A stretch of 64,000 nucleotides of DNA from Escherichia phage vB_EcoM-813R1: the sequence record ON470617.2; one strand, given 5' to 3'. The translations under genes were made by a program, and so were the position numbers. Positions within the stretch are counted from its first letter, which is position 1, and each line of letters begins with the position of its first letter. Shown here in pieces: positions 35,349 through 36,690 of the stretch. The notes beneath the pieces are model-generated. The model was given only the letters and a program-made list of their open reading frames with translations. It was not told where the DNA came from and made no database searches.

Positions 35349-36690
35349 CATCCTCCACGCCCCGAAGGGCGTGGATTCCTGCTACGTTCAGGCTGTCGCC
35401 TGAATCATTTCGGTGGGTTCCTGCTTCAACGGGCGGCCTGACTGCACCATCCCTCCACAGGCAAGTACGGCGTGCCCCGCCGCTAAAATGTTACGAGCGC
35501 CGTTTACATCGGCGTTCGCTGTATATCCACATACCTGGCATCTGAATTTACTTTGTGACAGGCGATTTTCTTTCGCTGTATGACCACAGCACGCGCAACG
35601 CTGGCTTGTGTACGCTGGCGGAACAGCAAGCACCTGACCGCCACGCCAGAGCTGCTTGTACTCAAGCTGGCGGCGCATTTCATACCAGCCCTGATCCAGT
35701 ATCGAACGGTTTAAACCTGATTTTGCCCGGACATTGCGACCCGGATGACTTATCGTTCCCGCCGCTGACTTTGACATGTATTTAACCTTCAAATCCTCAA
35801 TGACAATCATTGCGTGGTTTTTGCTGACGGTCGTTGTGACTTTGTGAAGGTAGTCCCTGCGGATATTTGCGATACGGGAATGCAGTCGCTGTATTTTGCG
35901 TTTCTGCTTCTGCCAGTTGTTGCTGAATTTGACCTTGCGGCTTAACTGTCGCTGAAGTCTCGCCAGCTTCTTCTGGTTTTTCTGAAAACTATTTACAGGT
36001 TCAAAGACTGTGCCATCTGACAGCGTGGCGAGTTTAGCCACGCCAGCATCCAGTCCGACCATTGATGCTGAAGGGTGAACAGGAGTGGATACCTCTCTTT
36101 CTGTCTGAATACTGATGTACCACTTACCGCAGGACTGGCTGACAGTAACATTTTTCACAATACCCGTGACCTGACGGCTATTCCGGTAGCGCATCCAGCC
36201 AAGTTTCGGCAGAAAAATACGGCTGTTTTCCTGATCGAGCTTAACACCCTGCGGGTAGCGGAATGCATCATTCTGTCCCCGCTTTTTGAATCGGGGAAAA
36301 GCTGCCCGATTCTGGAAGAAGTTTTTGTAAGCCCGCTCAAGGTCTTTCAGTGACTGTTGCAATGGCTGTGAGGGAGAATCTTTAAGCCATTCGGTTTCAG
36401 TGTCTTTTTCCACTCAACCAACCAGGAAGCCATTTTCGTGTAAGGGATGTATTTTTTACCGGCCTCATGATTCTCATTCTGAAGCGCCAGAGCACGGTTG
36501 AAAACGAAACGACAAGCTCCGGCAAAGCGCCTCATTTGATGCTCCTGTTGACCATCTGGTTTTAACCGGAATTTGAATGACACCTGTTGTTTCATGTCAC
36601 TATTTTAAGCAAAAATAGCCGGGAGGAAAACTGTGCCTTATATCCCCACTATGAGGAGCGTAGGGGCGGCACATTGGATAAGGCGTAACA
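35349..36690 (-). mobile_element. IS200/IS605-family insertion sequence carrying only tnpB (no tnpA), inserted between ddrA and ddrB
   Basis: TnpB gene on the minus strand fills the ddrA-ddrB intergenic space; perfect subterminal hairpin CCACGCCCcgaaGGGCGTGG at 35352-35371 just past the tnpB stop; boundaries approximate. Confidence 0.7.
35388..36595 (-). CDS. tnpB: TnpB (OrfB) RNA-guided nuclease of an IS200/IS605 element, frameshifted at a T5 run near 36405
   Basis: N-terminal ORF 36347-36595 ([17 protein letters not shown]...) and ORF 35388-36413 (…RuvC-like region and C-terminal zinc finger [12 protein letters not shown]...CQVCG) join across tgtctttttcc. Confidence 0.8.

Follow-up and report, generated by a model that had tools for sequence, protein, structure and literature searches.

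A tnpA-less IS609-type element on the ddrA stop codon of P1-like phage-plasmids, with a predicted RNA guide matching the empty site

We analysed a window of 64,000 nucleotides (nt) from Escherichia phage vB_EcoM-813R1 (ON470617.2), in which a tnpB gene lies between ddrA and ddrB, on the strand opposite to the dar antirestriction operon. Judged from its sequence, the DNA that carries this gene is a tnpA-less, non-autonomous form of an IS609-type element of the IS200/IS605 family of insertion sequences (IS). We consider it highly probable that the element goes back to a single insertion and encodes an intact TnpB together with an omega-RNA that would home on the empty site. An initial annotation of the window had recognised a tnpB-only IS200/IS605 element in this position and orientation, which our comparisons with P1 and with related copies confirm; several of its further claims had to be revised.

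Insertion on the ddrA stop codon

Taking P1 (NC_005856; locus L001) as the empty-site reference, we delimited the element by BLAST against the window. Position 35344 of the window pairs with position 4446 of the P1 locus and position 36678 with 4447, which places the breakpoint at 4446/4447. On the plus strand, the empty site in P1 reads ...GAGGCAGC/ATAAGGCG... (slash, breakpoint; the right side begins with ATAAGG), and the two junctions in the window read ...GAGGCAGC/GTGACATCC... and ...CACATTGG/ATAAGGCG.... Relative to the P1 empty site, neither junction shows a base gained or lost, and a target-site duplication is absent. The insertion is therefore exactly 35345-36677, or 1333 bp (1335 bp in relatives). 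P1 thus lacks the element, and both of its ends are defined:

35345..36677, minus strand: IS609-like tnpB-only IS200/IS605 element, delimited by empty-site comparison with P1
36678..36681, minus strand: TTAT target motif and predicted transposon-associated motif (TAM) adjoining the left end; ATAA on the plus strand, left over from the original ddrA TAA stop
36596..36677, minus strand: left end, 82 nt upstream of the tnpB ATG, with an imperfect subterminal hairpin (36632-36673) and a conserved core, GGGGATATAAGGCACAGTTTTCC, at 36625-36647
35354..35375, minus strand: right-end subterminal hairpin (9-bp stem; loop TTCG as read on the minus strand), with the conserved GGAGGATGTCA motif on its 3′ side
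35345..35348, minus strand: right-end terminal tetranucleotide TCAC, the cleavage motif; TCAA in nearly all relatives

The ends first proposed, 35349 and 36690, were near these; the exact element includes the final 4 nt of ddrA at one end and leaves 16 nt between its other end and the ddrB ATG. Rather than filling the gap between the two genes, as the initial annotation had it, the element landed on the ddrA stop codon and replaced it. Site, orientation and junctions are identical in three other records, RCS47 (NC_042128), SJ46 (NC_031129) and pSvP1 (NZ_MN510446).

Both ends have the subterminal hairpins of the IS200/IS605 family, and the element has no terminal inverted repeats. On the element strand, the left flank reads ...CGCCTTAT and the left end begins CCAATGTGCC..., so that a target motif, which the initial annotation had proposed to look for 5′ of the left end, is present as TTAT. 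Among 16 related loci, the left-end flank is TTAT in 13 and TTAC in 3, and the left cleavage site of IS609 is given as TTAT (PMC6906374). The left-end hairpin is nested, and its fold alone is not significant (z = −0.8). Its outer stem is TGTGCC/GGCACA here and GCGCC/GGCGC in relatives, a compensatory change, and the left end therefore still looks structured. The tip of this hairpin departs from the canonical CCCCGTCCTTCAGGGCGGGG in the window, RCS47, SJ46 and pSvP1, and element nt 1-30 found no BLAST match in other copies.

The right end reads ...AGGAATCC-hairpin-GGAGGATGTCAC. Its hairpin pairs 35354-35362 with 35367-35375 around a 4-nt loop, lying 12 nt beyond the tnpB stop and 5 nt beyond that of ddrA, and the last two bases of the stem are the first two of the GGAGGATGTCA motif. 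The initial annotation had noticed a real hairpin and misplaced it, as an 8-bp stem at 35352-35371; its coordinates for ends and hairpin were off by 3-13 nt. The terminal motif GGAGGATGTCAA hardly varies among 56 related right ends, and conservation ends exactly at the terminus.

As first annotated, tnpA is missing. A tblastn search of the 64-kb window with the K-12 tnpA remnant as query returned nothing credible (best E=0.005, 44 aa, at an unrelated locus), and this copy has no Y1 (HUH) TnpA of the kind that IS200/IS605 elements encode. With no tnpA in either the element or the window, the copy is therefore a non-autonomous member of the family. Lacking a tnpA of its own is the commonest state of tnpB elements (PMC10055086). 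In many of 75 related loci from other species, about 480 nt separate the conserved left-end core from tnpB downstream of it, and at one of them (L011) a 147-aa Y1_Tnp gene (E=1e-41) occupies the space between left end and tnpB; in other relatives, as here, the left end is joined directly to tnpB.

A conserved structured RNA and its predicted guide

The initial annotation expected a guide RNA to derive from the tnpB 3′ end and the right end. A structured RNA supported by covariation is indeed found there, with a predicted guide in the flank:

35345..35510, minus strand: scaffold of a predicted omega-RNA (reRNA), extending over the tnpB 3′ end and the right end; predicted 5′ boundary
35329..35344, minus strand: predicted 16-nt omega-RNA guide, 5'-GCUGCCUCUUUAAUGU-3', directly 3′ of the right end and antisense to the last ddrA codons

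To the last 200 nt of the element we aligned those of 39 relatives (alignment A1, 40 sequences; 50-94% protein identity). Nucleotide conservation at the tnpB 3′ end was striking, and RNAalifold returned eight helices with 38 pairs. On this consensus structure, 96.9% of the alignment cells form standard pairs, compared with 41-48% when partners were slid by 1-3 columns, and 19 of the 38 pairs show compensatory change on both sides (5-9 in the slid controls); on every measure, 0 of 500 shuffles reached the observed value. The terminal hairpin, helix 8, is 97.8% paired and is no chance feature, because 6 of its 9 pairs show compensatory change. Helix 1 pairs 35506-35510 with 35347-35351 and adjoins the guide. 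Such an RNA matches the anatomy expected of a TnpB omega-RNA, for which expression and the exact 5′ end are predictions.

Searching 35000-37000 against Rfam by E value gave no family at its gathering score. The sub-threshold matches offer weak corroboration only (RAGATH-18, 28.1 bits against 44.9; HgcC, 22.6 against 50; sot0042, 17.8 against 88); the best of these on the scaffold (minus) strand are HgcC and sot0042, which we take to be archaeal RNAs linked to IS1341-type transposase genes.

The predicted guide segment is flanking DNA, outside the element. Known TnpB systems take their guide from flanking DNA (Karvelis 2021, PMC8612924; Meers 2023, PMC10055086), and their TAM is the motif adjoining the left end (PMC10055086). 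On the element strand, the empty site of P1 is TTAT followed by GCTGCCTCTTTAATGT, an exact match to the predicted guide, whereas once the site is occupied, the sequence that matches the guide follows the right end and not TTAT. Elsewhere in the window there is no TAM-adjacent match to the guide; the sole near-match, at 20492 (1 mismatch), lacks an adjoining TTAT. As neither its own ddrA copy nor this near-match carries the motif, the plasmid should not cut itself.

An intact TnpB behind a probable sequencing artefact

In the window as written, tnpB is split into two open reading frames (ORFs), which the initial annotation overlooked:

36347..36595, minus strand: tnpB N-terminal ORF, 82 aa, with the HTH_OrfB_IS605 domain; in another frame than the rest of the gene owing to the deletion at 36400-36404
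35388..36413, minus strand: tnpB C-terminal ORF, 341 aa as listed, with OrfB_IS605 (RuvC) and zinc-ribbon TNB domains and the catalytic residues
36400..36404, no strand: T5 run with the 1-nt deletion that splits tnpB; T6 in RCS47, SJ46, pSvP1 and pEC-16-35-3

The protein itself has the hallmarks of an RNA-guided nuclease of this family (residue numbers refer to the intact 402-aa TnpB). Its Pfam domains are HTH_OrfB_IS605, OrfB_IS605 and Cas12f1-like_TNB, and it matches the structures of ISDra2 TnpB (E=9e-52). D183/E267/D363 align with D191/E278/D361 of ISDra2 TnpB, and all four zinc-finger cysteines (C334/C337/C353/C356) are aligned as well. Among the P1-borne copies, the ratio of non-synonymous to synonymous substitution rates (dN/dS) is ~0.19, by which measure TnpB is under purifying selection.

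Were the frameshift genuine, the element would be a dead relic, an inert fossil that does nothing except lengthen the spacer between ddrA and ddrB. The window ORFs of 82 and 341 aa do lie in different frames, the left end also has a 1-nt deletion, at 36662, and the right-end terminus is non-consensus. What makes such a relic improbable is the company the deletions keep. Three changes separate the element from its RCS47 counterpart: a substitution and two deletions of 1 nt each, both in homopolymers (36400-36404, where T6 has become T5, and ~36662, where G5 has become G4). The closest relative of the window in PLSDB is the E. coli plasmid pEC-16-35-3 (NZ_CP093228; 99.9% over 24 kb), and a MAFFT alignment of window 24000-48000 with it revealed 13 single-base deletions and 0 insertions (examples are 27178, 29253, 30284, 30671, 33124, 36404, 36662, 38885, 40102, 47238 and 47360). 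All 13 lie in homopolymers, many of them in CCWGG (Dcm) contexts, and the 11 outside the element also break cin (30671), darA (33124), ddrB (38885) and other genes. Deletions only, confined to base runs and Dcm sites, are typical of long-read basecalling error. In addition, the 402-codon tnpB is intact in RCS47, SJ46, pSvP1, AR435 and pEC-16-35-3, unlike in the window; RCS47, AR435 and pEC-16-35-3 are relatives at 99.8-99.9% identity. Because the 13 deletions are unaccompanied by insertions and all fall in base runs, the tnpB frameshift is very probably a sequencing artefact.

The apparent pseudogenes in the window (tnpB, darA, ddrB and cin) are thus probably read errors, and a biological interpretation of them is unwarranted; pseudogene calls anywhere in the window should be distrusted. 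A large indel in the repetitive tail-fibre gene (26390-26846) in the same MAFFT alignment was set aside as spurious. This repeat aligns ambiguously with pEC-16-35-3, and may reflect differences in repeat register or an assembly collapse.

A probable single ancestral insertion of a common element

Element nt 99-1332 are ~95% identical to insQ (ydcM, next to ydcO) of the E. coli chromosome, which is present in 5015 of 5426 complete genomes. K-12 insQ and the IS609 of pJIE250-3 are 94-95% identical to the element over nt 31/99-1332, that is, across tnpB and the right end; the first 30 nt and the last base differ. Both have the same 402-aa TnpB architecture, a TTAT left flank and a right-end hairpin followed by GGAGGATGTCA, and in each of the three places a convergent gene obtains its TGA from the right end. 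By contrast, the terminus is TCAC in this copy and TCAA in insQ and the pJIE250-3 IS609, and the tip of the left-end hairpin has been replaced. The K-12 locus keeps a divergent tnpA pseudogene before insQ and a left-end fragment beyond it, whereas this copy has no tnpA remnant. The pJIE250-3 IS609 sits on the stop of pro and this copy on that of ddrA; their records place the former after pro and the pSvP1 copy between ddrB and ddrA. In the window, the end of pro (head-processing; 43580-43625, minus strand) holds the empty version (...CCGTTTAA/ATAACCATC...) of the pJIE250-3 IS609 site, so that at least two sites of IS609 insertion are known in P1-like genomes, each of them a TAA stop codon.

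At the ddrA site, the element is 99.8% identical to the window copy in RCS47, 98.4% in pSvP1 and 96.1% in SJ46. The rare TCAC terminus and the variant left-end hairpin are common to all four P1-borne copies examined (window, RCS47, SJ46 and pSvP1), and are absent from the chromosomal and pJIE250-3 copies. As shared derived features, they indicate one ancestral insertion.

The 4% difference between the SJ46 and RCS47 copies could alternatively mean that the ddrA stop is a hot spot, hit repeatedly and independently by IS609 copies or through TnpB homing. The family does insert at a short motif, the SJ46 copy is less similar to the window (96.1%) than is its wider dar region (98.2%; 98.7% for RCS47), and the differences are partly clustered. 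However, neighbouring ddrA is equally diverged. Between RCS47 and SJ46, the synonymous divergence (dS) is 0.098 for the element, 0.096 for ddrA, 0.033 for darA and 0.057 for ddrB; the element value matches that of ddrA and exceeds those of darA and ddrB ~2-3 fold, as co-divergence would allow, possibly together with a degree of gene conversion. Together with the shared TCAC terminus and non-canonical left-end tip, on which we rejected independent insertions, this leaves the hot spot with little to recommend it.

The insertion is also an ordinary one, and the novelty implied by the initial annotation did not hold. As probes we used 240 nt across the junction of ddrA and the right end and the corresponding stretch of the P1 empty site, counting matches with full coverage. 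In PLSDB, the occupied junction was found in 75 plasmids (E. coli and Salmonella) and the empty one in 357; about 80% of sequenced P1-like plasmids are thus empty. GenBank/RefSeq label the gene insQ or 'RNA-guided endonuclease TnpB family protein' in RCS47, SJ46 and other records, and the paper on pSvP1 calls its copy an 'IS609-like sequence' (Venturini et al. 2019, PMC6906374). Because it is annotated in RCS47 and SJ46, published for pSvP1 and present in 75 PLSDB plasmids, the insertion is already known. A literature search combining TnpB with phage-plasmid returned nothing on this element, and it goes unmentioned in a review that covers 77 P1-like plasmids (PMC9603915).

Parts of this IS609-like sequence recur in further phage records: in Morganella phage IME1369_01 (92% coverage, 95.6%), in 'ORF348' of the filamentous phage If1 (48% coverage, 95.8%) and in Aeromonas phage AP1, where the match spans 291 nt. 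Such matches may be additional phage-borne copies or carry-over of host DNA. The window itself holds a 139-nt fossil (1116-1254, plus strand) of an IS609-like tnpB 3′ end with a right end, flanked by the incA iterons and parA. It matches element nt 1194-1332 at 77% identity, with GGAGGATGCCAA as its last bases; the P1 reference has it too (98.4%), but it is absent from RCS47, SJ46 and several other P1-like phages, in which matches start at 1285.

Likeness to characterised TnpB and TnpA systems

The nearest experimental models for the RNA-guided part are ISDra2 of Deinococcus radiodurans and ISGst of G. stearothermophilus. Their TnpB proteins align over the full length, with the catalytic residues kept (ISDra2), and they share an RNA scaffold over the tnpB 3′ end and right end, a guide in the flank and a TAM equal to the left-end motif. 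The protein similarity to ISDra2 TnpB is distant (E about 1e-51). The ISDra2 TAM is reportedly TTGAT, and the one predicted here is TTAT.

For the ends, the comparison is with IS608 of Helicobacter pylori, the TnpA model. The two share insertion 3′ of a TTAC-like tetranucleotide without duplication, and a cleavage motif that follows the right-end hairpin by 10 nt on the 3′ side; likeness reportedly extends to the TCAA motif and to a GAAT immediately 5′ of where the hairpin stem begins. IS608 differs in having both tnpA and tnpB, which point the same way; this copy lacks tnpA.

Consequences for the dar operon

The insertion lies in a lysis and antirestriction block with the order cin, lydC/A/B, hdf, darA, ddrA, insertion, ddrB, hxr. 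Its two neighbours are as follows:

34983..35348, plus strand: ddrA, 121 aa; its last 4 nt, 35345-35348 (G of the final Ala codon and the TGA stop), come from the element
36694..39680, plus strand: ddrB, 995 aa in P1 and RCS47, with a ddrB-ParB domain; the ATG and the 16 nt upstream are untouched

The end of ddrA is GCA GCA TAA in P1 and GCA GCG TGA in the window, entry having occurred between GC and ATAA. DdrA is unchanged at 121 aa, the replacement TGA being the reverse complement of the right-end terminus (TCAC to GTGA). An antisense insertion on a TAA codon swaps in a TGA because the reverse complement of TTAT is ATAA and those of TCAA and TCAC are TTGA and GTGA. The same TAA-to-TGA swap is seen at ddrA (35345-35348), at pro (pJIE250-3, locus L007, 1075-1078) and at ydcO (K-12-type, locus L004, 3733-3736), and at 8 of 51 distinct related sites the right-end TGA closes an open frame of at least 100 codons, compared with 4 and 2 in the other frames.

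The initial annotation considered the insertion likely to be polar on the downstream dar genes, which our results do not bear out. In P1, ddrB starts 12 nt after the ddrA stop codon, and its ribosome-binding region is intact after the insertion. A scan of 35200-36800 predicted 2 promoters and 2 terminators, as many as expected from shuffled sequence, and gave no support for polarity or for an outward promoter. In the window, ddrB is split into 766 and 229 aa by a 1-nt deletion in a C-run at ~38885; in RCS47 and SJ46 the ORF is complete at 995 codons, and the two versions differ by 38 synonymous and 14 non-synonymous changes (dN/dS ~0.11), evidence that ddrB has remained under purifying selection since the insertion. 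Strong polarity on ddrB is thus unsupported; the dar operon is not obviously inactivated. IS1 does lie elsewhere in P1, as the annotation had it (NC_005856 22626-23393, downstream of hxr/isaB).

A regulatory role is an alternative, with TnpB domesticated as a nuclease-independent, RNA-guided repressor (TldR-like), or with the inserted DNA acting mainly as a regulatory spacer or terminator that tunes down ddrB. Within a plasmid lineage, the copy seems to be fixed at a single site, its TnpB is under apparent purifying selection and its predicted guide is antisense to ddrA. Against this, the protein is full length with its D-E-D triad and zinc finger intact, unlike nuclease-dead exapted homologues, and on these catalytic residues we rejected a nuclease-dead TnpB. 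The resident ddrA lacks TTAT, hence the occupied plasmid offers no TAM-flanked target, and the terminator-like sites do not exceed shuffled expectation. We regard both forms of such a regulatory role as very unlikely.

A proposed homing cycle and its weak points

Our preferred reading remains a non-autonomous IS609-type element that would home on its empty site. In this reading the element entered once, by the single-strand 'peel-and-paste' route of the family, in an ancestor of a sublineage of P1-like phage-plasmids, immediately 3′ of the TTAT formed by the A/TAA end of ddrA. By analogy with ISDra2 and G. stearothermophilus TnpB, the structured RNA would be processed to an omega-RNA carrying the 16-nt ddrA-antisense guide, and the complex of TnpB and this RNA would cut TTAT plus GCTGCCTCTTTAATGT, the 'donor joint' of an uninterrupted ddrA-ddrB junction. 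Such a target would arise after excision, or be met in P1 relatives that lack the element, and repair from an occupied copy would favour the keeping or copying of the element. Transposition to new sites would require Y1 TnpA in trans, from a host IS609/IS605 copy.

Several points weigh against this reading. As written, the window tnpB is frameshifted, and the copy is dead if the frameshift is real. The TCAC terminus and the divergent left-end hairpin tip may mean that the copy is no longer excisable by TnpA. TTAT is a predicted TAM for this TnpB, drawn from the left-end flanks. The low dN/dS could reflect gene conversion from chromosomal insQ, or limits that RNA structure sets on synonymous sites. 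Nuclease activity of this TnpB is a prediction from analogy and cannot be assumed: the TnpB of H. pylori IS608 was inactive in one assay (PMC10055086). The SfaTnpB paper includes IS609 TnpB among nine purified proteins.

What the insertion may mean for P1-like phage-plasmids

The element marks a sublineage of P1-like phage-plasmids, of the RCS47, SJ46 and pSvP1 type. Its predicted guide is fixed on the allele of most other P1-like elements, and inheritance or competition between co-resident phage-plasmids could be biased as a result. A relative without the insertion might be cleaved when it enters, or shares, a cell with an occupied plasmid; it would then be excluded, or recombinational repair would convert it to the occupied form. 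That TnpB is under purifying selection (dN/dS ~0.19) in copies that perhaps no longer transpose is compatible with such a role. Action as an RNA-guided gene drive, or as a weapon in competition between P1-like phage-plasmids, is a speculative proposal, to which we give a minor chance. If true, this would be a naturally occurring case in which the guide RNA of a TnpB targets the allele of a rival phage-plasmid.

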